Source: Kiritimatiellia bacterium
GTDB taxonomy: Bacteria > Verrucomicrobiota > Kiritimatiellia > RFP12 > UBA1067
Length of the DNA stretch: 64,000 nucleotides
Reading direction: 5' to 3'
NCBI GenBank assembly: GCA_045598785.1
Contig: JAZLMR010000035.1
Coordinates: forward strand, 2,091-66,090
Shown: positions 28,636-45,846 of the stretch, in pieces
How the letters are laid out: every line of letters begins with the position of its first letter
Numbering within the stretch: position 1 is the stretch's first letter
The notes under the pieces: model-generated
Database searches by the model: none
What the model saw: only the letters and a program-made list of their open reading frames with translations
Told to the model about the DNA's origin: nothing
Translations under genes and position numbers: made by a program

Positions 28636-28693
28636 ATTCTCCTCGCATTAAGCACTAGGCGCCCGGCACTGCGCACCCGGCACCCGGCACTTC

Positions 28694-29462: not shown

Positions 29463-30467
29463 TCACAATACTTTCATCTTGGGCAAATCCTGCAAATCGA
29501 CGATCCCCACCACCTTGCCCTTGCGGTCGCAAACGGGCAAGTCGTCAATCCGCTTGCGCTCAAACACCTTCAGGAGCTCCGCCGCGTAGACGTCGGAGTA
29601 GACGAAGGAGGGCTTCGCCGTCATGTAACGGGAAATGGGCGATTCCAGAACGTCTTCCCGCTTCCCGCTTCCCGCTTCCCTTTCCGCCGCCACCAGGCGA
29701 CGGAAGTCCCCGTCAGTAAAGATTCCCTTCAACTTGCCGGCCCGGTCCACGACAATGGCGCTGCCGCCATGCGAATTAGTCATCGCCAGCGCCGCATCCA
29801 TCACCGTCGCCGTCGGCTTGACGAGCGCGAGGGCGTCACCCGTGCGCATGATGTCGGACACCTTCAGGATGAGCGCCCGGCCAATCGCCCCCGCCGGATG
29901 ATTGCCCGCATAATCGGCGAGCGAAAACTTCCGCGCGTCGATCATCACCATCGCGAGCGCATCGCCCATCGCCATCGTCGCCGTCGCGGAATTGGTCGGC
30001 GCCATGCCGAAGGGGCAGGCTTCCTGGCCGCACGGGATTTCAATATGGATGTCGGAGAGCTTTGCCAGTGTCGAACCGGGATTGCCCGTCAGCGAGATCA
30101 CCTTGAGCCCGTGCCGCCGGATCGCGGGAATGAGCCGCAGCACCTCGTCGGACTCGCCGCTGAAGCTCAGCGCCACCAGAATGTCGTTCGCGGAGACCAT
30201 CCCCAGGTCGCCGTGCATCGCCTGGACCGGATTGAGCACGATCGAGCGCGTGCCGGTCGAAGCGAAAATGGCGCTCATCTTTTCCGCAATGTGCAGGTTC
30301 TTGCCGACGCCGGTAACGACCACCAGGCCGCCGCGCTGGGTTGCCGCCAGCATCAGCTGCACTGCCGCGACGAAACTCTCCCCGATCGAGCCGCGGGTTC
30401 GCTTCAGACCCTCGATCTCAATCGCGAAGACTTCCTTCGCCCGTTTGATCTGTCGTTCCTTCGTCAT
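29463..30467 (-). CDS. kdsD: Arabinose-5-phosphate isomerase (KpsF/GutQ family; SIS domain plus tandem CBS)
   Basis: 334 aa. SIS-domain phosphosugar-binding signature VVTGVGKNLHIAEKMSAIFASTGTRS and a C-terminal CBS pair. Confidence 0.85.
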   Translation of the reverse strand: MTKERQIKRAKEVFAIEIEGLKRTRGSIGESFVAAVQLMLAATQRGGLVVVTGVGKNLHIAEKMSAIFASTGTRSIVLNPVQAMHGDLGMVSANDILVALSFSGESDEVLRLIPAIRRHGLKVISLTGNPGSTLAKLSDIHIEIPCGQEACPFGMAPTNSATATMAMGDALAMVMIDARKFSLADYAGNHPAGAIGRALILKVSDIMRTGDALALVKPTATVMDAALAMTNSHGGSAIVVDRAGKLKGIFTDGDFRRLVAAEREAGSGKREDVLESPISRYMTAKPSFVYSDVYAAELLKVFERKRIDDLPVCDRKGKVVGIVDLQDLPKMKVL

Positions 30468-30477
30468 CCTTACCGAT

Positions 30478-31515
30478 TCACTTCGTCTGGCTCTGCAGCA
30501 TCGTCACCGCCACGGTCGCGACGATGTCGTCGGCCGAGCAGCCGCGCGACAAGTCGTTCATCGCCTTGGCGAGCCCCTGCAGATTCGGACCGATCGCTTC
30601 CGCACCGCCGAGACGCTGCGCCACCTTATACGCGATGTTGCCCGCCTGCAGGTCCGGAAAGATGAAGACGTTCGCATTGCCCTGAATCTCGCCGTTCGGG
30701 TTCTTCTGCTTGCCGACCGACGGCACGATCGCCGCATCGAACTGCAGCTCCCCGTCCATCTTGATGCCCGCCTCGGCGAACTTCGGCTTGGCCAGCGCCA
30801 CCGCCTGCTGCACCTTCTCGACGAGGTCGCCCGCCGCCGAGCCCTTGGTGGAAAAACTGAGATACGCGACTCGCGGCTCGTTGCCGGTGAGGTCGCGGTA
30901 GCTCTGCGCCGTCGCGAGCCCGATGTCGACGAGCTGCTCCGCCGTCGGGTTGGGAATGACGCCGCAGTCGCCGAACGCGAGGACACCGTCGCCCGCTTCC
31001 GTCGGGGTCTTCAAGTCGATGATGAAGCACGAGCTCGCCGTCTTCACGCCCTTCTGGGTGCCGAGCGTATGGAACGCCGCGCGGAGCATGTCGCCCGTCG
31101 AGGCGATCGAACCGGCGACGAGGCCCTGCACGCGGCCGAGCTTGACCATCATGCCGCCGAAATAGATGCGCTTCGTGCGAAGCGTCTGCTCGGCGCCCGC
31201 GAGATCGATGAGCTTCTGCTTCTCCGCCGGCTTCTTCGCCTCCTTCGCGTTCCACGCCTCCAGATAGGCGTTTTCAAGCTCCGCGTCACCGGCCGTGTAG
31301 TCGATCGCCTGAATGCCGAAATCGGCAAGACGCTTGCCGGCCTTCGCCTCCGCCGCGGCAATTTCCGCCGCCGTACCCAAAACTACCGGAGTTGCGAGCT
31401 TCCGTTCGACGCACGCGCACGCGGCGGTAATGACGCGCGGATCCTGCCCTTCGGGAAGGACGACCGTGCCGTTAAGTTTCGAAGCCCGCTCAATGATGTT
31501 CTTAATTGCGTTCAT
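30478..31515 (-). CDS. pta: Phosphate acetyltransferase (short-form Pta; phosphate butyryltransferase not excluded)
   Basis: 345 aa phosphate acyltransferase family, directly downstream of acetate kinase. A heptamer-repeat element lies between the two genes. Confidence 0.8.
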   Translation of the reverse strand: MNAIKNIIERASKLNGTVVLPEGQDPRVITAACACVERKLATPVVLGTAAEIAAAEAKAGKRLADFGIQAIDYTAGDAELENAYLEAWNAKEAKKPAEKQKLIDLAGAEQTLRTKRIYFGGMMVKLGRVQGLVAGSIASTGDMLRAAFHTLGTQKGVKTASSCFIIDLKTPTEAGDGVLAFGDCGVIPNPTAEQLVDIGLATAQSYRDLTGNEPRVAYLSFSTKGSAAGDLVEKVQQAVALAKPKFAEAGIKMDGELQFDAAIVPSVGKQKNPNGEIQGNANVFIFPDLQAGNIAYKVAQRLGGAEAIGPNLQGLAKAMNDLSRGCSADDIVATVAVTMLQSQTK

Positions 31516-31525
31516 TTTTGTTTAA

Positions 31526-31616
31526 GTATGAAGTGTGAAGTATGAAGTATGAAGTATGAGTGAAGGAATTTATCGTTCATAGTTCATAGTTCATAGTTCA
31601 TCGTTCATAGTTCATA
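31526..31616. repeat. Two mutually inverted tandem heptamer arrays, 5x GTATGAA and 6x GTTCATA, separated by a 14-nt spacer, in the ackA-pta intergenic region
   Basis: Read directly: 31526-31560 gtatgaa gtgtgaa gtatgaa gtatgaa gtatgag; 31575-31616 gttcata gttcata gttcata gttcatc gttcata gttcata. The TATGAA/TTCATA cores are reverse complements. The last unit overlaps the ackA stop codon. Confidence 0.9.
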
Positions 31617-32763
31617 GTTTCTCCAACACTCTCACCGTGTCCCGCGCGATCATCAGTTCCTCGTTGGTCGGGATCACGATCACCGGAATCTTGGAGCCCT
31701 TCGCCGAAATCACCGCCGTTTCGCCGCGCTTCTGATTGGCCTTGGCGTCAAGCTTGATGCCCAGCGCCCCGAGCCGACCGAGAATGCGCTGGCGAACTTC
31801 GCTGGAATTCTCGCCAATGCCGCCAGTCATGATGATCGCATCCGCGCCGCCGACAATCGTATTGTAGGCGCCGATGTAGAAGGCGACGCGATACGCCAGC
31901 ATCTCCAGCGCCAGTTCCGCGCCGCGGTCGCCCTTCGCCGCCTTGGCGCAGAGGTCGCGGCAGTCGCCGCCCGGCACGCCGCCGACCGCCTGCAGGCCCG
32001 ACTGCTTATTCAGGAGCTTGTCCATTTCCGCGGGACCAAGCTTCTCGCTTTCCATCAGCGACAGCACCGCCGCCGCGTCGATGTCGCCGCAACGAGTGCC
32101 CATTATGAGCCCCGCCAGCGGCGTGAGGCCCATGGAGGTGTCCACCACGCCGCCGTTCTTGATCGCCGCCAGCGACGAACCGTTGCCGAGGTGGCAGGTG
32201 ACGAGATTGACCTTCGCCAGCGGCTTCTTGAGGAACTTGGCCGCCGCCTGGGTGATGAACTTGTGCGAAGTGCCGTGGAAGCCGTACTTGCGAATGCCGT
32301 ACTTTTTGTAGAACTTCGGATCGATCGCATACATGCCGGCGCAATCGGGCATCGTCGCGATATGGAAGGCGGTGTCGAAGACGCCGACGTTCGGCACACC
32401 CTTGAAGATCTTCTCGCACGCCTCGACGCCGCCCAGATTGGCCGGCATGTGCAGCGGGCCGAACTTGACGAGCTTCTTGGCCTTAGCGAGATTGGCCTTG
32501 TTCATGAGCGCGGAATCGCGAAAGACTTCACCGCCGTGCAGGATCCGGTGGCCAATCGCGTCAATGCCCTTCGCCGCGTCGCCAAGATCGGCGACCACCT
32601 GCCGGAGCGCCTCGGCGTGGTTGGCGGGGCCGCCGGCGCCGATGCGCTCGACGAGCCCCTTGGCGAGCCGCTGCTCCCGCTGCATGTCAAAGAGCTGATA
32701 CTTGAGCGAACTGGAGCCGGAGTTGACTACGAGAACCTTGCGAATAACCTTTTTCATTTGCAT
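31612..32763 (-). CDS. ackA: Acetate kinase
   Basis: 383 aa. N-terminal VLVVNSGSSSLKYQLFDM is the acetate/propionate kinase signature. Confidence 0.9.
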   Translation of the reverse strand: MQMKKVIRKVLVVNSGSSSLKYQLFDMQREQRLAKGLVERIGAGGPANHAEALRQVVADLGDAAKGIDAIGHRILHGGEVFRDSALMNKANLAKAKKLVKFGPLHMPANLGGVEACEKIFKGVPNVGVFDTAFHIATMPDCAGMYAIDPKFYKKYGIRKYGFHGTSHKFITQAAAKFLKKPLAKVNLVTCHLGNGSSLAAIKNGGVVDTSMGLTPLAGLIMGTRCGDIDAAAVLSLMESEKLGPAEMDKLLNKQSGLQAVGGVPGGDCRDLCAKAAKGDRGAELALEMLAYRVAFYIGAYNTIVGGADAIIMTGGIGENSSEVRQRILGRLGALGIKLDAKANQKRGETAVISAKGSKIPVIVIPTNEELMIARDTVRVLEKL

Positions 32764-32778
32764 TTGGACGATTGTGAT

Positions 32779-35700
32779 TTACTTGTAAAGCGAGACGCGG
32801 AAGAAGCCGGCATCGCCCTCGACCCCGCGAACGGGAACCTTGGAGGCGCCGGCACCGACGGTGATGGTCTGGGTTTCGCCGACCTTGATCCAATTGACAT
32901 CCGCAAGGCTGGCCTTCCAGTAGACGTCGCACTTGACCGTCATCGTCTTGCTGACGATCGCCTGGGCGAGCACGCTGTCGTTGCGAGCCGGCTCCGTCTG
33001 AGCTTCAACCTCAATCACGACATCGCCGTTCTCGTCAAACGCGAGCGAACTGATGATGACGCCGTCTTCGACCAGTTCGTTGCTGACCGCCGCCGAAATC
33101 GCCGCCGCGAAGGTGTCGTAAGCCGAGACGTCGCTGCCCAGCGCCAACGCCATCGCGCCGGCATTGCTCAGGGTGAACATCGCCTGCGCCGCGAGCCCGC
33201 CGTTGATGTCCTGGGCGCCGATTCCAAGCTCCTGCATCAAGTTCTCGGTCAACACGTCGCTGATGGCGAACTCCCCGGCCGCCGAGAGGTTGAGCTCCTC
33301 GACGCCCTTGGTCGTGAGGTTGCCGTACATGGCAAATTCCCAGGCATCCGGCAGCCCGTCGCCATCGGTATCGGCATCTTCGAGGAAGATCTCGCAGAGA
33401 TCCCCTTCGCCAACCACGTTTGCGATCTTGACCGCCACCGGGTTGAGATAGTCAGCCGTGGTGCCGTTGCGCTGACAGAAGTAGCCCATCGTCTCCCATT
33501 CGTCGCAAACGCCATTGGCATTGGAATCGATGAACGCCTGGAGATAATAGGTGCCCGGAGGCAGCCCGATGAGCGTGCAGTTGGCCGTAAGCTCCCGATT
33601 GGTAACCGCCAGGCCCGTAATCGCGTCGGCAGGCTGAGCCACATAGCCCGCCGCCACCGGCGTGCCGGTAAAGTCAGGCGAGGTATAGGCGCGGACGCGA
33701 ACCTGCTTGCTCGCGAAGCTCTCCGCCGGACCGAAGTAGCGCACCGCCACCGGCACCTTGCCGCTCGACCAGCCGTTAGTCTGCACCGCCATGCGGAACG
33801 ACGGCGCGTCGGAACTGAAGACATCGGTGCTGAACTTCGCGTTGTACATCGCGACCTTCCAGCTGTAGTTGGTGTTGTTGTCAAACACCACGCCTTCCTG
33901 CGTCTTATCGCCCACGAAGAGCGGCGCCGCCCAGACATATTCGTTCTTGCCATTGCGCGCCGGCGCCGGCAGGATGCCCGAATCGTAGACCTTGGTCTTA
34001 GCCGCATCCGTCTTCAGCACCTGAATGCGGAAAGCCGGATAGCCTTCTTCGTCGGGGCAGTCGAGCTTCCAGGTGAAGGTCGGATTGGCCGTGCGCACCA
34101 CGCCGCCGACTTCGCCCGCCGACACCGGCTCCGGCAGCACGCGATCCTTGCCAAACTTACGGGTTACGAGCGTATCCAACGCCGTCACCGTATAATTCGT
34201 CAACACGGTCGACCACCAGTCAACTCGGGCATCGCCAGTCACCACCAAATAGGTCACATTGGTGATTCCCAGCTGCTTACTCTTCACGACCGAATTGTTG
34301 ACCACCTCAGAATTGAGATATTTCCAATCCAAGTCAAGTTCACCGTTAGCGAAAATATCAGCTTCCGTCAACACCGACCGAACCGAAGTAGTGACATACT
34401 TGTCAAGCACCACTCGATTCTGAATCCCGCAATCCACCGCCGAATTGCCATCGACCAGCCACCGGACAACGCGAATATGCTGCGCCTTGTCCGAGCTTTC
34501 CAACGCCGTCGACACAATGTTCATCTTCGCCATCCAGCTCAGCGAAGAGGGCAGAATGTAAGACTGCGTCAGCCAGTCATAGTATTCAGGGCGGGAAATG
34601 CCGCGGTCGGACTCCGCATCAACAAGACTAATGCGTGGCGTTACCGGGCTCACGTCAGTCAGCTCGATTTCCGCCGAAGTGCCGCGCCAGGAGACCTCGA
34701 CATTTCGAACGACGCCATAAGGCTCCCCGGCCGAATATTCACCGTCACCGTCCAAATCGGCAAAGGCAATAATCATGTTCTTGCCTTCCCGGACATGGCC
34801 GACCGTCGCCTCGCCGAGATAAAGCTGACGCGGCAAACCGGTCAGCGGATTGGCCTTGTAGGCGATGCGGAAATACTTGTCCTCGAACGAACTCACCTCG
34901 TTCCGATTGGACACGTTGGAGCCATACCAGCCCTTGAAGACGCCCAAGTCGAGGTCAAACTCGCCGGTGGCCAGATTGATCGTGCCGAACTGAGTGCCGT
35001 CCTTGGTCACCCAAACGCCAAAGTCACTGTCGGCCTCAGCGCGAACCTCGGTGCCGACCAGTTCCGAATAAGCCGAGCTGGAAGGCAGCTTCTCGACGCC
35101 GGAGCCGTCGGCATTGGAACCCAAGACCCCGTATTTGCGAACTGCATCCTCATATTCGGCAATCGTGCCGCGATAAACCACGTATTCGCCATTGTAATGA
35201 TACTTCCAGCTGCATACCGTCGCCGACGGGCCGTCGCAGGCCTGGAGCGACATCGAGCTCGCCATCACGCTGCCCGGCGTCAGCGTGCCCACCATGTGAC
35301 GGTCAGACCACTTGCCAAGCACGCGATAGAGCTGATTGCTGCCCACGCCGACTTCCACCTTGTAGCTGGCGTCCGGCTCGGACTCCAGTTCGCCGGTCAC
35401 GAACTTGACGACCATCGGCGCCGACTCGACCGTCGACTGGCGGCGGCCGTTATAGCGGAGGGTGAGCGCAATCGTCGGCACCGGATAATCGGAAACTAGC
35501 TCGCCCGAAGCCGCCATGTGGCGCTGACGGTCGGCGATGATCGGCATGCACAGCTTCGAATAACGCACCTTGCTGCGGTTGCACCAGCCGTCGAGCTCGC
35601 GATTCGCGAAGGCATCGTAAACGAGCCGCGAGGCGAAAGTGCCCGCATACTGATCTTCCCATTCGTCATCGACCAGATCGTGATCGGTGAAGATCTCACC

Positions 35701-38700
35701 CGCATAGAGCTTGCCGATCCGGAAGAAGTAGTCGGGCGTATAGCGATTGACCGAGAACGGATCGGTCGGGCTGAACGTGAACCCGTCGAAGCGGAAGACT
35801 TCCGAGAGCATGTATTCGACATAGTTGGAAAGCCCGTCGTGGTCGCTGTCATCGAGCGCCGACGCGTTCGCGAGTCCATAGATGTTCTCCCACCAGTCGG
35901 GCAGCCCGTTGGCATTCAAGTCGTAAAGCTGCCGATACTTGGGATCGTCGAATACCCCCTCGACGTTCTTGTCGGCATAGGCGCCGCGGGCCAGATCGCG
36001 CAGATACGCTTCGCGCGCCGTCATCTTGACCCCGTTATAGAGGACATAAGTCGAAGGGGCAATCGGGGTCTGCGGATCGTCGGGGAGGCGGTATTCCCCA
36101 TCCGCATAAGCCTCCCACCAGTCCGGCAGCCCGTCGCTGTCGCTGTCATAGCCGGTGATCTCCCAGTTGGCGCTGGCCCCCTGCTTGTCCCACAGCCCGA
36201 CCGTGTTGTCGCAGAACTTCACGAACGCGCCGCCGAGCGGGAGCAGATCGTCGCCACACTGCGCCGCCGTGCGCCCGGCGAAGTTGAAGAGATTGGCCAA
36301 ACCGCCCATCACGTCGCCCGGGCAATAGGTCGGGCTGAACACGAGCTGATGCCGCGCCGCCGTCGTCCGATAGGCATTGTCGGCGGTCGCGAAGTTGCGC
36401 GTATACTGCGTCCAGAGCGAAACCGGTTCCGCGTCACGGGCAAAGCCATAGTTGCCATTGACGCCGCCCGCAAAATCCTGGCTCCAGAAAGCCGAGTCGC
36501 CCGTCGTGCCGTCAATGCGCGGCAAGTGGGCCATCGTATCCGGCACCCAGGTCACCCAACGCGGATCGGCATAACGCGAACCGTACGCATCGAGGACGCG
36601 CTTCCACCAGCCGCAAACCCAGTCGTCCGGACGCGACCAGCGGCCGGCGTCGGAATCGAGGAACCCGACCGGCGCCTGCGCAAGCGACTCCACGTTGTCC
36701 GCGCCGAAGACGGAATCGAACGAATAGTGGTGACGAAGCTCCGGCAGCACGTTCATGCCGCGGGCGAGATCCGAGTAGCGGCTGTAGCCGAACGCCAGCC
36801 ACTTGTCATAGAAGGCCGCGCGGTTGCTGACGGCGTCGGCCGCCGTGAAGCGCTGGCGCATCGCGCCCGAGATCTCCGCCTGGCTGCGCGCGCCGTCCCA
36901 GATGCGGACTTCGTCGACATAGCCCTTGAAGAAGCGGGTATAATAGTCCCAGCCCTTCGCCTCGGTGAGGTCGAGCGCCCGGCCCACGGTCTGCGAAGCC
37001 ATCGGCCCCGGCAGCTCGGCGTAGGTCTTGAGCGACGCACCGACAATCAGCGCGCAGTAGGAATAGGTCTTGCCGAACGAGAAGTCGTCATATTCGTTCG
37101 CCAGTCCTTCCGCATGCCGGGCGACGATGGCGTTGCGGCCATTCTCCGGCCACAGCTTGTTGACCTTGCCGTCAAGGTTTTCGCCGACCGAAATCCCGTT
37201 CACGTAGAAGCGGAGCGATTCGCCGTCATAAGTCGCCGCGAGGTGCACCCAGCGGTTGGGCTCGACGGTCACGCCGCTGTCGACGAAGACCTGGCTCTCC
37301 ACCTTCGTGCCCGTGGTGTCGAACTTGGTGAACCACTTCTGCGACTTGATCGCGATCTGGAAGTTCTTGCGGATGAACTCCTCGTCGGCCGCGCCCGATT
37401 CGGAACCCCAGACGGCGCGTTCGATCACCACCGAATCGGCGTCCGACTCCGGATAGGCCCAGCACTCGACCGTATAATGGCGGAAGGTGTCTTCGGTATC
37501 GAACTTGGTCGCCCCCAGCGGCGAAAGCTCGACGCACCGCGGCATCGTCTGCAGCGCCGACTTGTCGCCCGGGAAGTACATCGCCTGCCGGCGCATCGGC
37601 GCATCGGCATTCAGCGGGCTGGAATAATCGGTGATCTTGCCCGACAGCTCGCTGCTGTCGTTGACGCCGTCATGGTCGGTGTCGTAGCCTTCGTTCTCTT
37701 CGAAGGAACAGACCCAGTTGAAGTTATTCTGGGCGGCAACCGCCCACTTGTCGGGATTGTAGACCCCGAACGCCGGCACTTCGCCGTCCGCCGTCTGGGC
37801 CAGGGTGTAGCCGCCGAAATCGCAGAACTTGTACTCATCGCCTTCCGGAGACGTGAAGGTCGGAGCGCCGAGCAACACCGGGCTGAAGCGCGCCGGCATC
37901 CGGAAGAACAGGCGCACCAGCGAATTCGAGTAGCTCGAATCGGTCATCCACAGCGGCGTCGGGTCGGTGTGGTTCGCATAATCGAGCGCGTCCCGGGTCT
38001 GGATCGCCTCCTCCTCGTTGCGGATGTCGTCGCCATCGGGATCGGCGCCGAGCATGCCGTTAAGCCACGGATAGACGGTGAAGTCCATGCCCGTATTGGT
38101 CGCGCGCGCATCGGCCTTCGCCCGGAGCGGCGAACCGAAGCGCGTCCAGGTGTTGACCAGGTCCAGCGACTCGCTCTGGTCGCGGCGCCAGGCCTTGACC
38201 GGCGACTCGTACATCGTGCCGGCCTCGGCGTTCATGCCGTAGCACCACGCATGGTAGACGAGGTCGCACGGCTGGCCGTTCTCGTTGCGGACGCCTGCGG
38301 CGCCCAAAAGCGGATTCATGCCATGGAAGAGCTCGTAGTAATCGTCCATACCGTCATGGTCGGAGTCGGCCTCGATCGGCGAGGTGCCCATGTAGCACAT
38401 CGGCGTATAAAGCGCCTTGTTCTTGACGAGCCCCGCGCTGACGAACGCCAGGAACCAGTCATTTTCGGGCTTCGCCGAAAGCTCATGGTCGACGCCGTCG
38501 TAGAAGAAGTAGTAGGTGCCGGCATCGGTGAACGCCGGGTCAAACCCGTTCTTCACCCGCGTGAAATACTGCGAGCCGACCGGCGACTGGTCCATGACCA
38601 GATAGGGGTTGTAGATCGGGCTCTGGGTGTTGACCAGGGTCTCGTACCAGAACCTGCCCTCGTCGACCGTATCGTCGAGGAGCTTGAGCTTGGCCGACTC

Positions 38701-41700
38701 GACCGCCTTGTCAATGTTGAACACCCAGGCGTGTTCGTCTTCGTTCCAGTCGAAATAGGCTTCCTTCGGCGTCGAGTCCCAGCGCGAGATCGGGTCGTCA
38801 TAACGCCAGCAGCGCATCGTGCCGGTCAGATATTCCTGCCAGTTCTCCAGACCGTCGCGGTCATAGTCGCGATTGACGGCGTCTTCGTTGCCGGATCCGT
38901 CGAGAATCGACGCGACCAACTTGTTCCACGGCCGGGTGTAGGCATCCTTGACCGTGCCGTCCATGCCGTTGACAATGCCGTGGTTCTTGTCGGCAATGCC
39001 GTTCGCTTCGTCAAAGCGGCCGGCATACTGCGCTTCCCAGACGTCGGGCAGGCCGTCAAGATCGGTATCGATCGCGCACGGATTGAGGCCGCCGCCGGGG
39101 ATGCAGGTCGAACCGTCGTCAACCGGCTCGCCGTAAATGAAGCGGCCCGCCATGAACGAACACGCTTCCGCGCTGTTGGCGATGATCGCGATGTTCTTGA
39201 TTTCCGCCCCGTCGGCAAGGCCGTCCTGATCGGTGTCGGCGCCCCACGGATCGGTCGGGAAGAACTTGTTGATCCACTTCTCGTTGCCGCCCGGCGCCCC
39301 GTTCACCGTCGCCGAATATTCCGTATAGTAGGCGGTAGTGTCGGTGCCCGAGAATTCATTGAGTTCCGTAAGCCCGTCACCGTCGCCGTCGGTAGTCGCC
39401 AGCATCTGCGAGAGCGGCTGCCACGGATCCAACTCGCTCGAAGCCACGAAATTGTAGCAAAGCGCCGTCCCCGTCAAGCCAATCTGCTTTTCCACCTTCG
39501 GACCGGCCATCACATAGAGCTCCCAGCCGTCCGGCACGCCGTCGCCATCGGTATCGGCGCCGTTGTCGCTGCCCGCGGCCTCGGTAACCGCCGCCTTGGC
39601 CGTTTCCGTGCCTTCGTCCTTGGAGTTCGCCACTTCGGCGACCGCCGTCTCGCCCGGACCGCGCGGATTGGTGGTGAACTTCGCGAAAATCGTGCTCCAG
39701 GGCTGAGTGAGCGACGGCGTCACCTCCGACTCCTTCAGCACCCCGTTGTTCATCAGGAACGAGAGCGTCAGGAACTCGTCATAGGCCGTAAACGCGCGGG
39801 TGCGGGTGGCGATGCCGGCATAGCCGCTGAACGAGCCGTCGCGGGCGGTGCCGTCGGCCTCCTTCGCCCCCCAGCGCGCGTTGAGCGGAGTGAAGGGATT
39901 CCACGCCGTGCGCGGATCAAAGCCGAACTCCTGATAGACGAGGTAGTGGAGATACGCGACGCTCCGCTCGGTCGACGGCGCTTCGACGATCACCGCCTCC
40001 GCCGGCGCCTTTTGCGAACGCCCGACGGCGATCTGGCCGAAGCCGACCATGTCGGAAACCGACTCGTTCGCCGAAGTCGCGAGTCCGCCCGCAGCCGTCG
40101 TGCCGTAGATCCAGGCCGCGTTGCAGAGGTGCTCGGGCACTTCCGCCGTCAGCACCAGCTCGGCGCAGGGCACCGTCGACTCGGCCACGTTCCGCAGCTG
40201 CGTGCCCGCCAGCACCCGGATCGGCAGCCCGCGGCAAATGACCACCGGCTCTTCGCCCGACTCGGTGATCTTGAAAGTATCCTCGCGGTTCAGGTCCTTG
40301 GCCAGCATCGGCGCAGCGCCGGCGCTCTTGCGGATGGTCGCCTTGGTAGCCGCCTTGATCCAGTCGCCCGACGCGACGTCGAAATACTCGAAGACCGTCA
40401 CCGCCGGAATCGAATCGGGCCTGAGCTCGGTCTGCACGAGCGCGGCGTCGGTGACGACATACCACTGCACGCCGTCGGAATCGCCCGCGTCGTCGGCCAG
40501 CGCGAAGCTCGTCGGCGCAAGCGGATCGTACTGCTTGGGCCGGTAGCCCTCGGCCTCGTACTTGGCGGTCGTGAACGCCATCGCGTCGCCATCGGCGTTG
40601 CGCAAGCCGTCCGCCACCTCGCCGTCGGTCGCATACTTGATCGGGCTCGTGCCCGCGACCATGATTTCCCAGCCGTCGGGCAGGCCGTCGCGGTCGGTGT
40701 CGAAATCGAACGGATTGGTGCCGAGATAGAACTCGATCACGTCCGGCAGGCCGTCGTTGTCGGTATCCTGCACCTTGGCCTCGAAATTCGACGCCTTGGT
40801 CGGATTCATCGCCTTTTCGATTTCCGACGCCGGAATGAAGTCGCCCTCGGACGGATGCCGCGGATTGAAGCGGCGACCGGTCAGGTAGACATGGTTCGGG
40901 CCGTCCATATAGCCGACGTGCGCGCGATACCAAAAGTAATACTCGAAGCCGTCGTTGAAGCCGTCGCCATCGGTATCGGCGAGCGTCGGATCGGTCGGGT
41001 TCTCCGGCGTCCACTGCGACCACTTGGTCTCGTCGTCCAGCGACCACTCGTGCGCGTAGGCGTAATCGACCCACGCCAGATACTCGACCGGCGACAGCGT
41101 CGAATCCCCGTAAAGGTTCGGATCGATATACTTGAGAACCGGCTTGACCCCGGTCACGCCCGCAATCGCCGGCGCATTGTTGAGATGATCGTCCAAGCCG
41201 CGGATTTCCAAGACCGCGCTGAACTCGATCGGATTCGCCAGCGCCGCCGAAAAATCAATGAAGCTCGCGGTGAGGCTCGCGGGCAGATAGTCGCCGACCG
41301 CCGCGCCCGACTCGTCCTTGTCGTCATTGTAGGCGGAAAGCGACTTGATGTCGTCGACCGTCGTCTCCTCGGTCGAAGTGGTGCCGCGCGCATCCGTCAC
41401 CTCGGCCGACTGCGAGAAGTTGTACTTGGTGAAATACAGGTCGGGGATGCGGTCCATGTTGATGTCGCCCATGTTGTCGGAGGCGTAGTATTCCTTCGAG
41501 AAGATCGCCTCGACGGTGGTCATGGGCCACGACTTGCTGTTTTCCCCGAGCTGCGTCGGCAGGTCGACCGAGCCCGCCTGCGCCCCGCGTTCGGGCCGCT
41601 CCGGCGAAATCACCGCCGAAACCGATTCGCCCTCTTCGGCACCCTCGCCCTTCTCCGCCGCACTCGGCATCAGCCAGGCGTAGAAGAAGGAGTCGCGCAT

Positions 41701-44700
41701 GTCGCCGTCGCGAAAGGACTTGTAGACATAGGGACTGGTCACGGCCACGCCCGCCGTCGCCGAACCGTCCGATTCCAGCGCCTGGTCGTGCGTGTCCAGG
41801 GTGCCGTTGTCCGTCGGCTTCTCGATCTTGTAGCCCCAGGCATAGAGCGGCACGTTCACTTCGCTGGAGCAGTTCCACACCAGCCGGAAGTCGCTCGCCG
41901 TATTGAAGGTCGCGTTGCCCGCCGCGTAGACGTGACCTTCGCCGATGCCCGAAGCCGCCACATACTTCTGCGAGAGCTTCAGGGTCGAGGTGCCGCCCGA
42001 AGGCGCGGTCGCGATCGTGGTCAGGAACTTGGAGGCCGTGACCGTGAAGTACCAGGTGCGGGTCACGCTGCCGCCGTCCTTGTCGGCGATGGTGATCGTG
42101 ACCTGCTGATCGCCCTGCGCGGTACCGAAGTCCGGGATGAAAGTGCCCTCGGCCGCCTTGTAGTAAGTCGTGGTCGAGCCGCCGCCGCCGGTGATCGTGA
42201 CCGTGATGCCGGCTTCGAAGTCCTTCTCCACGTCGCTGCGGAGCCGCCAGGAGAGCGGATGCTGGGTGGCCGCGCCGCCCGCCACTTCCCAACGCGAGGT
42301 CGGGTTGGAATCCGGCGAGAAGGTAATGCCGTCTTCGCCGTTGTTCGGCGCCATGTTGCGCGGATGGATCTTGGTGTTGAGATTGGCCGTATAATACTGG
42401 GTCCAGGGCTCGCTCGTCTTCGGGTTGTTTCCGAGGTTGATCACCTCGGCCCGAATCCAGAACCCGTGCAGGTCGGAGGAGCTCGTGCCGTCCATCCGCT
42501 GGATGGTCACGTCCTGCGCCGCGTCGGAATTGAAGGTAAGGAAGTAGACGTTGTCGCCCGCGTGATCCATGTAGCCGGGCGGCGGCGCCTTGAGCGTCTC
42601 GTCGAGCAGCACCTCGCCGTCCTTGGCGGAATCGCCCGTCTCCTTGACCGGCGAAACGGTCAGCTTGACGTAAATCGGCTCTTCGGCGTCATAGTAGGTG
42701 AGACCGACCTTGACATAGGCGTCGCGAATGGCCGTTTCGAGGATGTTGTCTTCCGACGGCTCCACCGTGATGCCGGGATTGGACAGGACTTCGACAAACG
42801 CCGCGAAGGTCGTGTCCTTCCAGTCGTCCATATCCTTGTCCTTCACCTGCAGGACGATCTTGTTCCAGCCGGTATACGGGAAGGTGTAAAGCGTCTTCAC
42901 CTGGTTGGGATTGCCCGTCTGGGTAAGCGTATCCTTCGGGATGTAGGTGCCGTTGCGCGTCGACGCGACGCTGATCTGCCAGCGGCACTGGAAGTCGTTG
43001 TTGAGGTCGTAGGTCGAAGGATCGTCGACAAACGCCTGCAGCTCCTGGTTCTGGCCCTTCGGAAGCTTGAAGTTGTATTCGTAGCCGTCGACGTCGGCGG
43101 CAAAGCCGTTGAGCTCGATGCGCTTGATCCGCGGCTCGACGTTGTTGACCGTCACCGAGAAGGTGGAGGACTCGTAGCCCTTGACGATCTTGCTGGGCAC
43201 CGAACTGGTGGCCGTATCGTAGTCCTGCACCGTGGCGAGCACCACCTCGAAGTCGGTGTTCAGGTATTCGCCGGTCGCCGGCCCGTAGCCGTCGAGCAGC
43301 TTCAGCTTCGCCGCCGCCGCGAGCTTGTTGCCCTTGTTGATCTTAAGGCCGCGCGTATTGGACATGCCGATCACGAACGGCGTCGACGAGGAGAACTGCT
43401 GCGGCGACACGTCGTCGCTCATGATCTGCAGGAAGGCGTAGAGATCGACCTTGGTTTCCTCGCTCAGTTCGATGCGGATGTTCACCTGGTCGCCTTCATC
43501 GGCCTCAATGGCGTTGTCGCCGTCGGCGGTGGTCACCGAAACGCTCTTCGTCTTGGAAATGATCACGTTGAGCTTGCGGTAGACCGCCGTCGTGCCGCAG
43601 GACTTGTTGCCGCTCACCGGCGCGACGACATAGAACTCGGTCTCGTACTCGCCGGTCGTATCCCAGACGAAGCTCGGCATGTCGCGTGAGCTGTCGTCAC
43701 AGCGCTCCAGGACGCCGCCGTCGCCGGGCTTGAACTTGCCGTCGAGCTTCTTGAAGCCGGCCGGCGCGTTCGGCGCATGCTCGGTGTCGCTCGGATGATA
43801 CTTGACGAAGATCTCGTAGCCGTCGTCGCTCGCCATGTCGGCATAGGTGTCGGACACGCGGATCGTGACCGGGGTTTCGTCAAACTGGATGGCCGTCAGC
43901 TCCTCGCCCTCGGCCGGCGCCACGATTTCCGGATTCTGGGCGACCAGGTTCATCGACACGCCGCTGAAGCCCTGGATGATCGTCGGATAGGAACCGACCG
44001 CCACCGGCTCGAAGGCGATCTTGTTCGCCTCGCCGACCGTCTTCTCGTCACCGCGCAGCACGAACATGTAGAGCGTAACCGAATTGACATTGCCGCCCAG
44101 TTCGACCTCCGTCGTCGCGGCCTTCGGATCCGGCAGCGAAGCGACCACGTCGGAAGTCTTGGAGAAGCGGACGTACTCGCCCCATTCCGCCTCAGTGAGC
44201 GACGTCGCCGACCCCTCGAACTTCGGGTTCAGGCACACCTTGAACTTCTGCGAGACCGGCTGGGAAAGCTTGACCGTCAGCCGCGCCGCGCAAGTCTTGT
44301 AGTCGCTCGTCGCATAGGCCGAGGCGCGGTCGGCCTCGACAATCACCGACGGCGGCAGCGGCTCGACGCAGCGAACCGGCACCACCATGTAGTCTTCATA
44401 GGCCTCGCCGAGGGAGTTGCGCTTGTTGAACTTGTTGTAGGAGCTGAGCACCAGGCCCGACCAGCCGCCGGCCGCCGACTGCGAAACGCCGCGGATGGTG
44501 AAGTCGCTGAACGCATTTTCGCTGATGCTGGCGCCGATGGTGATCTTCGCCACATGGAACTTGACCCCCGGCTGCTTGGGGTCGCATTCGACCTCTTCCA
44601 CGTTCGGGCCGCTCACGACGACGGCGTTCTCGTTCGTCGACCACACGTAGAGCGACACCGACTCGTCGGCGGCCGACTTGCGCACGATCTGCGGCGCCAG

Positions 44701-45456
44701 CCCGTCCACGGTAATCGAAGTGTCCTGATGGACCGAACGCCACACGACGCTGTTAGTCTCCCAGGTCGAGGAGAAGTCCACCGTCTGCACGTTAAAGCCG
44801 GCGTTGACCAGCGCCGTGTCGGCAATGCGCTCGACGCCGCTCTTGCCGCTCGCCGAAATCCACCAATTGGGCTCGACGACCTGCATCGAGCTCTTCACAT
44901 ACTTGAACTGCCACTTGCCGCGCAAGTCGATCGCATAGTGCGGAGCCGATTCCGTCGGATCGAGCGCCGGCTGGTTCTTGCCGCCCACCACCGCGCCCAA
45001 GACGAGCGGCAGCGCGAAGTCGCCGGGCTTGGTCGTATACTTGAAAATGCAGTCGGTGAACTTGTAGCCGTTGACTTCCACGTTACGGACGTCGCACAGC
45101 CGCGCCCAACGCTCCTTGCCGGAAACGAAAATGCAGATCTGCGGCGGGTAGAGCGCCATGTCGGTCTCCTCGGACGAGCCGCCGAGATGCACCAGGCTCC
45201 AGTAGTTGACGCCGCCGTCTTCCGGCGCCACCAGCCGAATCCGGAAATAGGCGGTTTCACCGGCGTTCAGGCACGCATCCGAGCCCTTGGCCCACAGCGG
45301 ATACGCCGAAGTCGAGATGTCGCCGCCAATTTGCGTACAGGCCGCGACCTCGTAAATGTCGCCGGATTCCGCCGCATACAAGTCTGCACCGGCCACCGTC
45401 GTCACCAGCGCGAGCATCGAGAGGAGTTTCTTCATCATATTATGCCTCGTTTCCAT
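32779..45456 (-). CDS. Giant secreted surface protein (4225 aa) with about 16 thrombospondin-type-3-like Ca-binding repeats and a LamG/concanavalin-like lectin domain
   Basis: Single uninterrupted 12.7-kb ORF with a signal peptide (MMKKLLSMLALVTTVAGA) and an AAGGGA SD. Recurrent DTDxDGxPDxWE motifs (e.g. DTDRDGLPDGWEIM, DSDSDGLPDWWEAY). LamG-like block around comp(36850..37600) (...RFYVNG...YVDEVRIWDGARSQAEI). Acidic, no TM segments beyond the signal. Confidence 0.85.
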   Translation of the reverse strand: METRHNMMKKLLSMLALVTTVAGADLYAAESGDIYEVAACTQIGGDISTSAYPLWAKGSDACLNAGETAYFRIRLVAPEDGGVNYWSLVHLGGSSEETDMALYPPQICIFVSGKERWARLCDVRNVEVNGYKFTDCIFKYTTKPGDFALPLVLGAVVGGKNQPALDPTESAPHYAIDLRGKWQFKYVKSSMQVVEPNWWISASGKSGVERIADTALVNAGFNVQTVDFSSTWETNSVVWRSVHQDTSITVDGLAPQIVRKSAADESVSLYVWSTNENAVVVSGPNVEEVECDPKQPGVKFHVAKITIGASISENAFSDFTIRGVSQSAAGGWSGLVLSSYNKFNKRNSLGEAYEDYMVVPVRCVEPLPPSVIVEADRASAYATSDYKTCAARLTVKLSQPVSQKFKVCLNPKFEGSATSLTEAEWGEYVRFSKTSDVVASLPDPKAATTEVELGGNVNSVTLYMFVLRGDEKTVGEANKIAFEPVAVGSYPTIIQGFSGVSMNLVAQNPEIVAPAEGEELTAIQFDETPVTIRVSDTYADMASDDGYEIFVKYHPSDTEHAPNAPAGFKKLDGKFKPGDGGVLERCDDSSRDMPSFVWDTTGEYETEFYVVAPVSGNKSCGTTAVYRKLNVIISKTKSVSVTTADGDNAIEADEGDQVNIRIELSEETKVDLYAFLQIMSDDVSPQQFSSSTPFVIGMSNTRGLKINKGNKLAAAAKLKLLDGYGPATGEYLNTDFEVVLATVQDYDTATSSVPSKIVKGYESSTFSVTVNNVEPRIKRIELNGFAADVDGYEYNFKLPKGQNQELQAFVDDPSTYDLNNDFQCRWQISVASTRNGTYIPKDTLTQTGNPNQVKTLYTFPYTGWNKIVLQVKDKDMDDWKDTTFAAFVEVLSNPGITVEPSEDNILETAIRDAYVKVGLTYYDAEEPIYVKLTVSPVKETGDSAKDGEVLLDETLKAPPPGYMDHAGDNVYFLTFNSDAAQDVTIQRMDGTSSSDLHGFWIRAEVINLGNNPKTSEPWTQYYTANLNTKIHPRNMAPNNGEDGITFSPDSNPTSRWEVAGGAATQHPLSWRLRSDVEKDFEAGITVTITGGGGSTTTYYKAAEGTFIPDFGTAQGDQQVTITIADKDGGSVTRTWYFTVTASKFLTTIATAPSGGTSTLKLSQKYVAASGIGEGHVYAAGNATFNTASDFRLVWNCSSEVNVPLYAWGYKIEKPTDNGTLDTHDQALESDGSATAGVAVTSPYVYKSFRDGDMRDSFFYAWLMPSAAEKGEGAEEGESVSAVISPERPERGAQAGSVDLPTQLGENSKSWPMTTVEAIFSKEYYASDNMGDINMDRIPDLYFTKYNFSQSAEVTDARGTTSTEETTVDDIKSLSAYNDDKDESGAAVGDYLPASLTASFIDFSAALANPIEFSAVLEIRGLDDHLNNAPAIAGVTGVKPVLKYIDPNLYGDSTLSPVEYLAWVDYAYAHEWSLDDETKWSQWTPENPTDPTLADTDGDGFNDGFEYYFWYRAHVGYMDGPNHVYLTGRRFNPRHPSEGDFIPASEIEKAMNPTKASNFEAKVQDTDNDGLPDVIEFYLGTNPFDFDTDRDGLPDGWEIMVAGTSPIKYATDGEVADGLRNADGDAMAFTTAKYEAEGYRPKQYDPLAPTSFALADDAGDSDGVQWYVVTDAALVQTELRPDSIPAVTVFEYFDVASGDWIKAATKATIRKSAGAAPMLAKDLNREDTFKITESGEEPVVICRGLPIRVLAGTQLRNVAESTVPCAELVLTAEVPEHLCNAAWIYGTTAAGGLATSANESVSDMVGFGQIAVGRSQKAPAEAVIVEAPSTERSVAYLHYLVYQEFGFDPRTAWNPFTPLNARWGAKEADGTARDGSFSGYAGIATRTRAFTAYDEFLTLSFLMNNGVLKESEVTPSLTQPWSTIFAKFTTNPRGPGETAVAEVANSKDEGTETAKAAVTEAAGSDNGADTDGDGVPDGWELYVMAGPKVEKQIGLTGTALCYNFVASSELDPWQPLSQMLATTDGDGDGLTELNEFSGTDTTAYYTEYSATVNGAPGGNEKWINKFFPTDPWGADTDQDGLADGAEIKNIAIIANSAEACSFMAGRFIYGEPVDDGSTCIPGGGLNPCAIDTDLDGLPDVWEAQYAGRFDEANGIADKNHGIVNGMDGTVKDAYTRPWNKLVASILDGSGNEDAVNRDYDRDGLENWQEYLTGTMRCWRYDDPISRWDSTPKEAYFDWNEDEHAWVFNIDKAVESAKLKLLDDTVDEGRFWYETLVNTQSPIYNPYLVMDQSPVGSQYFTRVKNGFDPAFTDAGTYYFFYDGVDHELSAKPENDWFLAFVSAGLVKNKALYTPMCYMGTSPIEADSDHDGMDDYYELFHGMNPLLGAAGVRNENGQPCDLVYHAWCYGMNAEAGTMYESPVKAWRRDQSESLDLVNTWTRFGSPLRAKADARATNTGMDFTVYPWLNGMLGADPDGDDIRNEEEAIQTRDALDYANHTDPTPLWMTDSSYSNSLVRLFFRMPARFSPVLLGAPTFTSPEGDEYKFCDFGGYTLAQTADGEVPAFGVYNPDKWAVAAQNNFNWVCSFEENEGYDTDHDGVNDSSELSGKITDYSSPLNADAPMRRQAMYFPGDKSALQTMPRCVELSPLGATKFDTEDTFRHYTVECWAYPESDADSVVIERAVWGSESGAADEEFIRKNFQIAIKSQKWFTKFDTTGTKVESQVFVDSGVTVEPNRWVHLAATYDGESLRFYVNGISVGENLDGKVNKLWPENGRNAIVARHAEGLANEYDDFSFGKTYSYCALIVGASLKTYAELPGPMASQTVGRALDLTEAKGWDYYTRFFKGYVDEVRIWDGARSQAEISGAMRQRFTAADAVSNRAAFYDKWLAFGYSRYSDLARGMNVLPELRHHYSFDSVFGADNVESLAQAPVGFLDSDAGRWSRPDDWVCGWWKRVLDAYGSRYADPRWVTWVPDTMAHLPRIDGTTGDSAFWSQDFAGGVNGNYGFARDAEPVSLWTQYTRNFATADNAYRTTAARHQLVFSPTYCPGDVMGGLANLFNFAGRTAAQCGDDLLPLGGAFVKFCDNTVGLWDKQGASANWEITGYDSDSDGLPDWWEAYADGEYRLPDDPQTPIAPSTYVLYNGVKMTAREAYLRDLARGAYADKNVEGVFDDPKYRQLYDLNANGLPDWWENIYGLANASALDDSDHDGLSNYVEYMLSEVFRFDGFTFSPTDPFSVNRYTPDYFFRIGKLYAGEIFTDHDLVDDEWEDQYAGTFASRLVYDAFANRELDGWCNRSKVRYSKLCMPIIADRQRHMAASGELVSDYPVPTIALTLRYNGRRQSTVESAPMVVKFVTGELESEPDASYKVEVGVGSNQLYRVLGKWSDRHMVGTLTPGSVMASSMSLQACDGPSATVCSWKYHYNGEYVVYRGTIAEYEDAVRKYGVLGSNADGSGVEKLPSSSAYSELVGTEVRAEADSDFGVWVTKDGTQFGTINLATGEFDLDLGVFKGWYGSNVSNRNEVSSFEDKYFRIAYKANPLTGLPRQLYLGEATVGHVREGKNMIIAFADLDGDGEYSAGEPYGVVRNVEVSWRGTSAEIELTDVSPVTPRISLVDAESDRGISRPEYYDWLTQSYILPSSLSWMAKMNIVSTALESSDKAQHIRVVRWLVDGNSAVDCGIQNRVVLDKYVTTSVRSVLTEADIFANGELDLDWKYLNSEVVNNSVVKSKQLGITNVTYLVVTGDARVDWWSTVLTNYTVTALDTLVTRKFGKDRVLPEPVSAGEVGGVVRTANPTFTWKLDCPDEEGYPAFRIQVLKTDAAKTKVYDSGILPAPARNGKNEYVWAAPLFVGDKTQEGVVFDNNTNYSWKVAMYNAKFSTDVFSSDAPSFRMAVQTNGWSSGKVPVAVRYFGPAESFASKQVRVRAYTSPDFTGTPVAAGYVAQPADAITGLAVTNRELTANCTLIGLPPGTYYLQAFIDSNANGVCDEWETMGYFCQRNGTTADYLNPVAVKIANVVGEGDLCEIFLEDADTDGDGLPDAWEFAMYGNLTTKGVEELNLSAAGEFAISDVLTENLMQELGIGAQDINGGLAAQAMFTLSNAGAMALALGSDVSAYDTFAAAISAAVSNELVEDGVIISSLAFDENGDVVIEVEAQTEPARNDSVLAQAIVSKTMTVKCDVYWKASLADVNWIKVGETQTITVGAGASKVPVRGVEGDAGFFRVSLYK

Positions 45457-45465
45457 TTAAATCCC

Positions 45466-45846
45466 TTATTGCTTCGGTTGCGTGGGCTTCAGCCGCTGAC
45501 GGACGATTGCCTCCGTCTGGCGCGTCGACGCCTCAAATTCCCTGGCCAGCTCCTCCAGCTGGGCCTTAAGTTCCTGCGCCCGCGCGCTGCCCGGCGCCTG
45601 GGCGTTTTCCTGATCATATTCCCGCTTGAGCTCCAGGTGGCGCTTGATCAGCGACTGCTTGGCCTGCTCCTGCCGCTTCAGCTTGCCCATGAACTCCTGA
45701 TCGTTCAGGTAACTGGCGGGCGACGACGGATCCACCGCCGGCGCCTCCTCGCGGCTGCAGCCGACAACCGCTCCCGTCAGCATCAACGCCAACGCGAGCG
45801 TTCTTGGCCAGCACCAGAACGTTTTTATTTTCGCCATTTGAAACAT
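45466..45846 (-). CDS. Small coiled-coil lipoprotein (126 aa) between two giant genes
   Basis: Signal peptide plus lipobox (LALALMLTGAVVGCSRE), then a charged coiled-coil segment (KLKRQEQAKQSLIKRHLELKREYDQENAQ...LKAQLEELAREFEA). Confidence 0.5.
   Translation of the reverse strand: MFQMAKIKTFWCWPRTLALALMLTGAVVGCSREEAPAVDPSSPASYLNDQEFMGKLKRQEQAKQSLIKRHLELKREYDQENAQAPGSARAQELKAQLEELAREFEASTRQTEAIVRQRLKPTQPKQ

Follow-up and report, generated by a model that had tools for sequence, protein, structure and literature searches.

The 96-nt spacer (31516-31611) between the acetate kinase gene ackA and the phosphate acetyltransferase gene pta in a 64,000-nt stretch of a Kiritimatiellia genome (contig JAZLMR010000035.1; hereafter the window, with positions counted from its first nucleotide) is filled by two tandem arrays of heptamers in inverted orientation. 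This element replaces the coupled ATGA stop/start junction, folds as RNA, is young and lineage-specific, and belongs to a widespread, period-7-specific class of intergenic heptamer repeats. It is in our view probable that it is a hairpin like those of the cyanobacterial short tandemly repeated repetitive (STRR) sequences, that the pair of arrays grew in place from the old junction, and that its transcript is most likely a substrate of RNase III. Both genes lie on the minus strand, with ackA (31612-32763; Pfam PF00871, E-value 1.4e-126) upstream and pta (30478-31515; PF01515, 5e-98) as the downstream cistron.

Tandem Repeats Finder (TRF) identified one period-7 array at 31575-31619 with the unit GTTCATA (6.4 copies, 94% matches) and a second at 31524-31559 with the unit AAGTATG (5.1 copies, 93% matches), the two units being reverse complementary at 6/7 positions. 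An inverted-repeat search aligned 36-nt arms at 31524-31559 and 31577-31612 (or 31584-31619) with 81% complementarity; the TRF arrays are 15 nt apart and the best-aligned arms 17 nt. A two-unit probe (GTATGAAGTATGAA) with up to two mismatches had seven matches in the window where shuffles gave an expectation of 0.04, and since none of the seven lies outside the element, the 64-kb window holds no second copy of the unit. These searches and shuffles confirmed the central observation of an earlier sequence-only reading, two inverted heptamer arrays between ackA and pta in a gap of 96 nt with no Shine-Dalgarno (SD) sequence. Its unit counts of five and six need a correction on one side: the 3' arm of the mRNA (31524-31559, minus strand) does have five units (four ATACTTC and one ACACTTC), and the 5' arm (31575-31619, minus strand) has seven if a degenerate CGATAAA is counted along with five CTATGAA and one CGATGAA. 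The window as a whole is 62% G+C, but 31516-31625 is A+T-rich.

Read along the mRNA, ackA ends ...GAG AAA CUA UGA within (CUAUGAA)n with its two variant units, followed by the loop region CGAUAAAUUCCUUCACUC (31560-31574, minus strand), (AUACUUC)n and UUAAACAAAA-AUG of pta. The ackA stop codon TGA (31612-31614) lies inside a CTATGAA unit of the first array, as had been read from the sequence, and because the array supplies the stop codon, the protein ends in RVLEKL and is one residue longer than in 119 homologues (120 C-termini compared). In the 5' arm, start/stop overlaps of the form AUGA follow one another as a chain and occur in all frames. In the loop is an AATTCC that corresponds to the GGAATTCC core seen in relatives whose spacers are short and of ancestral type. 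Nine nucleotides separate the end of the 3' arm from the pta ATG (31513-31515), which is preceded by the A-rich leader AAACAAAA (31513-31523 with the start codon, minus strand) and by no SD (CUUAAACAAAAAUG); the AAAAATG tail of this leader is common to relatives' spacers.

Folding bore out the hairpin of about 35 bp with a mismatch at every seventh position that the sequence-only reading had drawn: the sense RNA of 31516-31625 had a computed energy of -22.1 kcal/mol (z-score -8.1), a 136-nt sense version reached -25.6 kcal/mol (z-score -4.1), and the stem comprises ~36 bp interrupted by one mismatch per heptad, which on the mRNA is C.C. The same reading's suggestion of an attenuator did not hold. 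The stem is A+U-rich, not G+C-rich, the sequence after it (UUAAACAAAAAUG) has no U-run, and a scan found no sigma-70 promoter-like or intrinsic terminator-like site at the element; since such sites are lacking, we rejected both the attenuator or terminator and the internal pta promoter explanations. A cmscan search with E-values up to 10 placed no Rfam family on the element and gave chance-level matches elsewhere in the window only.

Homologues of ackA with 84-90% identity were abundant in metagenomes, and the named ones were from Kiritimatiellia, which identifies the host as a Kiritimatiellia metagenome-assembled genome. A scan of a genome collection with ackA returned at least four close relatives, and together with per-protein look-ups it provided 13 distinct ackA|pta junctions, that of the window included (other contigs are designated by L and a number). 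This junction is hypervariable. In L001, L003 and L233 the stop and start codons overlap as ATGA (AAATGAACGC) without any spacer, and it is this overlapping junction that the closest relatives have (89% ackA identity). L231 has a 1-nt spacer that came about via a 5-nt duplication of the junction (AAATGAAATGAAC), its ackA product being encoded on a further contig, L232, as well, and spacers of 15-19 nt with a GGAATTC(C) core are found in L229 (15 nt; AGGAATTCCGGAAAA) and L008 (GGAATTCTAGAAAA). Other junctions carry 157 nt with a different ~45-bp hairpin whose exact centre is GGAATTCC (L002), 121 nt of CTAGARTAA 9-mers with a hairpin (L230), 7-mers of CGTAAAT type (L004), 8-mers arranged as (CCAACTNN)x4 (L005), a ~140-nt G+C-rich spacer (L007), or a 126-aa gene with matches to PF05635 and TIGR02436 between inverted heptamer arrays (L006), where the window has its inverted arrays of GTTCATA/AAGTATG type.

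The sequence-only reading had named the spacers of close relatives as the place where a conserved element should show itself, and there the idea failed: the window's arrays were not at the junctions of the closest relatives, whether overlapping (L001, L003, L233), 1 nt (L231) or 15 nt (L229). With no such arrays in the nearest relatives, the element is no conserved ackA-pta regulator, and we describe it as young and lineage-specific. We also considered a dispersed mobile element, such as a repetitive extragenic palindromic (REP) sequence or a miniature inverted-repeat transposable element. REP sequences and the bacterial interspersed mosaic elements that they compose are imperfect hairpins in intercistronic spacers and can stabilise the upstream mRNA segment. 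REP sequences and REPINs differ from the element, however, in being dispersed, near-identical copies that are mobilised by REP-associated tyrosine transposases and do not consist of tandem heptamers; we do not favour a mobile element, because the 64-kb window has no second copy and the junction shows no target-site duplication beyond a shared ATGAAC.

Judged from the sequences, duplication of 7-nt units can be seen to be at work in this genome and in its clade. In a span of 3 kb inside the window, TRF found four arrays of period 7. Downstream of pta follow a kdsD-like gene with SIS and CBS domains (29463-30467), an open reading frame (ORF) without a Pfam match whose orthologues in relatives are annotated as PF28178 Amuc_1102, and pilM. 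Inside the kdsD-like gene is (CGGGAAG)x3.9 (29654-29680, minus strand; 100% matches by TRF, with alignment), and relative to the closest orthologue (L231) the product has seven additional residues in the linker between SIS and CBS; these correspond to 21 nt or three units, the only multiple that preserves the frame. The spacer between the Amuc_1102-like ORF and pilM is filled by a GTGCCGG-type array of 4.7 copies (28658-28690, minus strand; TRF), which is direct, not inverted, and is followed by a normal SD (GAGGAG). In L230 (89% ackA identity) kdsD is missing, the pta/Amuc_1102 spacer contains an inverted-heptamer hairpin of GAGACNN type (L230:4806-4950; -74 kcal/mol), and a second such hairpin, GTTTGAT / GTCAAAC, stands before pilM (L230:5676-5800; -36 kcal/mol).

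The course of events that we favour starts from an overlapping stop/start (AAATGAAC) or from a ~15-nt spacer with the GGAATTCC core, which tandem duplication of 7-nt units would have expanded to 96 nt. The complementarity of the arms would have been kept at the DNA level, probably by template switching in a quasi-palindrome, a process known from E. coli genetics. Growth in place is preferred to the import of a ready-made element because the unit contains the junction's own ATGAA and the loop keeps the AATTCC of the short spacers.

That the element belongs to a widespread class followed from a scan of Joint Genome Institute (JGI) metagenomes for (TATGAAN)3, which matched at least 120 contigs with G+C contents of 0.24-0.63. 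With the seed arrays excluded, further arrays in these contigs numbered 15 for period 6, 93 for period 7 and 26 for period 8, and the density of period-7 arrays was 141/Mb vs 15/Mb in unrelated controls (1.17 Mb). Among the contigs listed, different heptamer arrays often abutted each other and often ended at a start codon, inverted pairs that enclose a short loop and no ORF numbered about two dozen, and arrays also flanked ordinary genes (ribH-, queD- and ferredoxin-like). The search for other GTATGAA arrays that the sequence-only reading had in mind had a divided outcome: there were none in the 64-kb window, and the unit GTATGAA / ATACTTC recurred in ORF-less pairs of other contigs, e.g., L086, L201 and L202. 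Cyanobacteria-like contigs in the scan had TATGAAT arrays beside arrays of CAGTCAA type, which we take to be a classical STRR unit. In common with this class, the element consists of at least three tandem 7-nt copies, is intergenic near an SD-less start, is absent or different in relatives and shares its genome with several other arrays.

Cyanobacterial STRR and other heptamer repeats have been known since 1990. STRR are 7-bp tandem repeats, and in several species the spacer between hupS and hupL holds one that forms a hairpin, for which the functions proposed are transcript stability or translational coupling (PMC2670836). The element resembles it in having tandem 7-bp units that form a hairpin in the spacer of a co-transcribed pair, whereas STRR families are dispersed with many copies per genome and the element, in a member of the Kiritimatiellota, has a different unit, each array within the 64 kb checked having its own. 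For this host, private unit and lack of another copy in 64 kb, we did not classify it as a cyanobacterial STRR in the strict sense, a term that implies one of the defined unit families, highly iterated in the genome of a heterocystous cyanobacterium. From Beggiatoaceae, Cyanobacteria and Bacteroidetes, MacGregor (2015) reported heptamer repeats with the unit TAACTGA that are mostly just upstream of SD-less starts, have other heptamers mixed in, and are absent from the shorter spacers of close relatives (PMC4679880). The element is likewise intergenic, a few nucleotides from an SD-less start and missing in the closest relatives, but the TAACTGA repeats have one dominant heptamer and occur as 169 direct sets vs one inverted (PMC4679880), while the arrays of the element are inverted to each other and have a unit of their own. 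With the hupS-hupL hairpin (PMC2670836) and the heptamer repeats at start codons (PMC4679880) on record, the earlier statement that no such element had been described was too strong.

On DNA, the sequence-only reading had seen a resemblance to iterons or to the binding arrays of response regulators. A perfect 7-bp register, both direct and inverted, is also what one would expect of an iteron-like array or of heptad operators in which a protein reads each 7-bp unit, and ribbon-helix-helix proteins such as the omega repressor of inc18 plasmids do bind heptad operators. The complementarity of the arms at the DNA level (88% of the pairs are Watson-Crick in the stems around PF05635 genes described below) fits such binding as well, and in Nostoc, where reporter expression responds to the heptamer repeats that precede recF and recO, an unknown binding partner has been postulated (bioRxiv 10.1101/2022.06.06.494920). 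However, the element lies within a transcription unit, the scan showed no promoter-like site there, and the heptamer differs at every locus and in each array of one operon. Since the heptamer is different everywhere, a single sequence-specific binder does not explain the arrays, and we regard a DNA-level binding array as very improbable.

Family PF05635 comprises the proteins (IVP, also S23p) of the intervening sequences (IVS) of 23S rRNA genes, and IVP-like genes recurred next to heptamer arrays. Among the 120 heptamer-match contigs listed, three (L083, L133 and L179) had a PF05635-like gene enclosed by inverted arrays, and in L112 an array stood just upstream of an IVP-like N-terminus; at L112:2180-2409 a block that comprises a heptamer array and the first ~20 codons of the IVP-like gene is duplicated in tandem. 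The order in L133:4648-5093 is a fliP-like gene ending in TAA, (AATTATG)x4, the IVP gene, (AATTCAT)x4 and the ATG of a fliQ-like gene, such that the IVP element sits exactly between the fliP-like stop and the fliQ-like start; in the fold of the whole element, the arrays pair as a closing stem of 29 bp. The next junction downstream in that contig (L133:5372-5478) has an ORF-less inverted pair, GAATTAG / CGTAATT.

These contigs had been selected through a heptamer, and selection bias was countered by taking IVP loci from viral contigs with protein similarity as the sole criterion. Visual inspection showed, in about 20 of 26 such loci, an array directly ahead of the start codon and its inverse directly behind the stop codon. 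The units were private to each locus, e.g., TAATTCG / CGAATTA x4.7 (perfect) in L212, GATTGCG x8.7 in L216, TTAGGAG x8.9 in L221, AAAATAG in L225 and ACTCATT x7.4 in L227, and one locus had an octamer instead of a heptamer. An inverted-flank score of at least 15 was reached by 13/21 distinct IVP loci, by 1/909 genes of control loci and by 14/406 genes of the heptamer-match contigs. IVP genes are therefore usually enclosed by inverted heptamer arrays (13/21 vs 1/909). Similarity among IVP sequences correlated with similarity among their heptamers (Mantel r 0.31, reached by 1/5000 permutations), which indicates that the arrays are inherited together with the IVP gene. The converse, that arrays always mark IVP genes, was dismissed, as only 3-4 of the 120 heptamer-match contigs listed have an adjacent IVP gene and arrays flank other genes too.

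A subset of IVP genes (L210, L211, L214 and L219) had no heptamer arrays and instead had spaced small hairpins upstream, each ending in CTTCAC or TTTCAC. In L203:1-3330 and in L220/L221 the IVP elements occupied tight slots between long same-strand ORFs, the termini of which, as we take it, resemble those of restriction-modification or BREX-type genes. Counts of neighbour strands for the IVP elements (15/24 and 14/24 same-strand) were uninformative, as the ORF caller picked antisense ORFs and mis-called the fliP- and fliQ-like genes of L133. Across the ackA-pta element and the IVP stems (L006, L083, L133, L179 and L203-L227), pairing looked better on the antisense or template strand.

In the literature that could be searched, we found no paper that connects PF05635 genes with inverted heptamer arrays as a general rule, and the one paper we found that joins both topics concerns Coxiella. 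In that work the IVS of the 23S rRNA carries an S23p (PF05635) ORF and terminal inverted repeats forming a 28-bp stem that is cut by RNase III, and the region of its 5' arm has two to three tandem GACAGAT heptamers whose number is strain-variable (PMC4990558). IVS proteins have been known since at least 1993, going by the citation of Ralph and McClelland in that paper (PMC4990558), and they do not appear in the account of MacGregor (2015; PMC4679880).

With these elements at hand, an alternative origin for the ackA-pta arrays has to be weighed, namely that an IVS-type element, an IVP gene with inverted arrays, once entered the junction and that its ORF was lost afterwards, so that the stem is what survives as a remnant or miniature. 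Like the IVS of Coxiella and Leptospira, the element has terminal inverted repeats that pair into a long stem, and it resembles the Coxiella IVS in its heptamers, and an ORF-bearing form is present at the very same junction in L006, with upstream arrays (GCATTGA)n and (ATTTGCG)n and inverse downstream arrays (CGCAAAT / CGTAAAT)n. The array of L004 aligns with the pta-proximal, downstream array of L006 and would be all that is retained there, IVP elements with the near-identical unit TTATGAA are found in L133, L209, L179 and L083, and the co-inheritance of arrays and IVP genes points the same way. The window's element, however, has a loop of ~15-17 nt with the ancestral AATTCC and no PF05635 / TIGR02436 ORF or remnant of one, its unit contains the junction's local ATGAA, no IVP homologue was found in the 64-kb window, and arrays of other contigs flank ribH, queD and a ferredoxin gene as well. 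It also lies between protein-coding genes and not at a helix 25/45 site of 23S rRNA, and the RNase III cutting known for the IVS stem would extend to it by analogy. We consider a remnant of an imported element unlikely.

More broadly, heptamer arrays and PF05635 (IVP / S23p / Avd-like four-helix-bundle) genes could be parts of one system, in which IVP genes would travel within stems of inverted heptamers, the ORF-less hairpins would be non-autonomous counterparts or by-products and the IVP would read the 7-nt register or drive unit-7 expansion. We put this forward tentatively, as a possibility to which we give clearly less than an even chance.

Returning to a pair of arrays that grew in place, we would expect its consequences on the bicistronic mRNA to be as follows. 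The insertion would have removed the direct ATGA translational coupling and put in its place an interrupted ~36-bp stem that ends close to the SD-less pta start. By analogy with IVS and with the hmw1A leader of Haemophilus influenzae, this stem would most likely be a substrate of a double-strand-specific RNase (RNase III), and cleavage would part the ackA and pta messages and alter pta expression. Translation of pta would start from the unstructured A-rich leader after cleavage, or after ribosomes have opened the stem. The copy number of the units would probably vary by slippage. More speculatively, the AUGA overlaps of the 5' arm could be read as three chained five-codon mini-ORFs (MNYER, MNYEL and MNYER). 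An RNase processing site had also been among the suggestions of the sequence-only reading, and for it there are precedents in hmw1A (PMC12721329) and in the Coxiella IVS (PMC4990558), which we carry over to ackA-pta as an analogy.

In the 5' untranslated region of hmw1A, (ATCTTTC)n forms one arm of a hairpin that is processed by RNase III, change in repeat number needs RNase III, and expression depends on the repeat number (PMC12721329). The parallel of a transcribed heptamer array in a leader that forms a long hairpin arm raises the question of whether the ackA-pta element might be a selected, tunable cis-regulator, its copy number setting the pta:ackA ratio via RNase III processing or start-site occlusion. 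The short distance from the stem to an SD-less start would suit this, and the AUGA overlaps of the 5' arm, present in all frames, could relay terminating ribosomes and so open the stem. The repeat arm of hmw1A, however, pairs with a non-repeat G-rich arm, and its setting is a promoter-proximal adhesin contingency locus with demonstrated phase variation, whereas genes of central metabolism are atypical as contingency loci. The closest relatives have no such element and keep tight coupling, neither sequence nor copy number is conserved at the junction, and the wobble statistics given below do not support a selected sense-RNA helix. We find a selected regulator of this kind quite improbable.

Several points weigh against the hairpin that we favour as an RNase III substrate grown in place. 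Its sense stem is weak (-22 kcal/mol, with a C.C in every heptad), and the antisense strand folds far better (-40.8 kcal/mol). In 21 IVP-type stems, sense-strand mismatches were A.C in 21 cases vs G.U in seven, although an excess of G.U over A.C had been expected; this is the opposite of selection for a sense-RNA helix, and it may be that pairing counts in the DNA, that it counts on the other strand, or that it is of no importance. Because the wobble counts are reversed, we make no claim of selection on a sense-RNA helix. We know of no agent that makes duplications of exactly 7 nt, and the portion of this genome that we inspected amounts to 64 kb.

Elsewhere in the window, giant ORFs at 32779-45456 and 45880-54504 (minus strand; 4225 and ~2875 aa) lie directly upstream of ackA, and their counterpart in relatives has Laminin_G_3 / TSP3 matches (L001, L231 and L233). 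Between them is a 126-aa ORF with no Pfam match (45466-45846). The strongest other hairpin of the window is a 27-nt inverted repeat with a 1-nt gap and 81% complementarity at 2840-2894, in a long ORF region.

The ackA-pta element extends heptamer-repeat hairpins to a fourth lineage, the PVC-group (Planctomycetes-Verrucomicrobia-Chlamydiae) Kiritimatiellia of animal guts, and it is a case of a tightly coupled ATGA junction that was turned into a structured 96-nt spacer over a short evolutionary distance. The pattern at IVP genes links work on the IVS of 23S rRNA, work on heptamer repeats and the Avd-like family of diversity-generating retroelements. If arrays and IVP genes do form one system, this would explain both the heptamer repeats, STRR and others, and the function of the IVS proteins.

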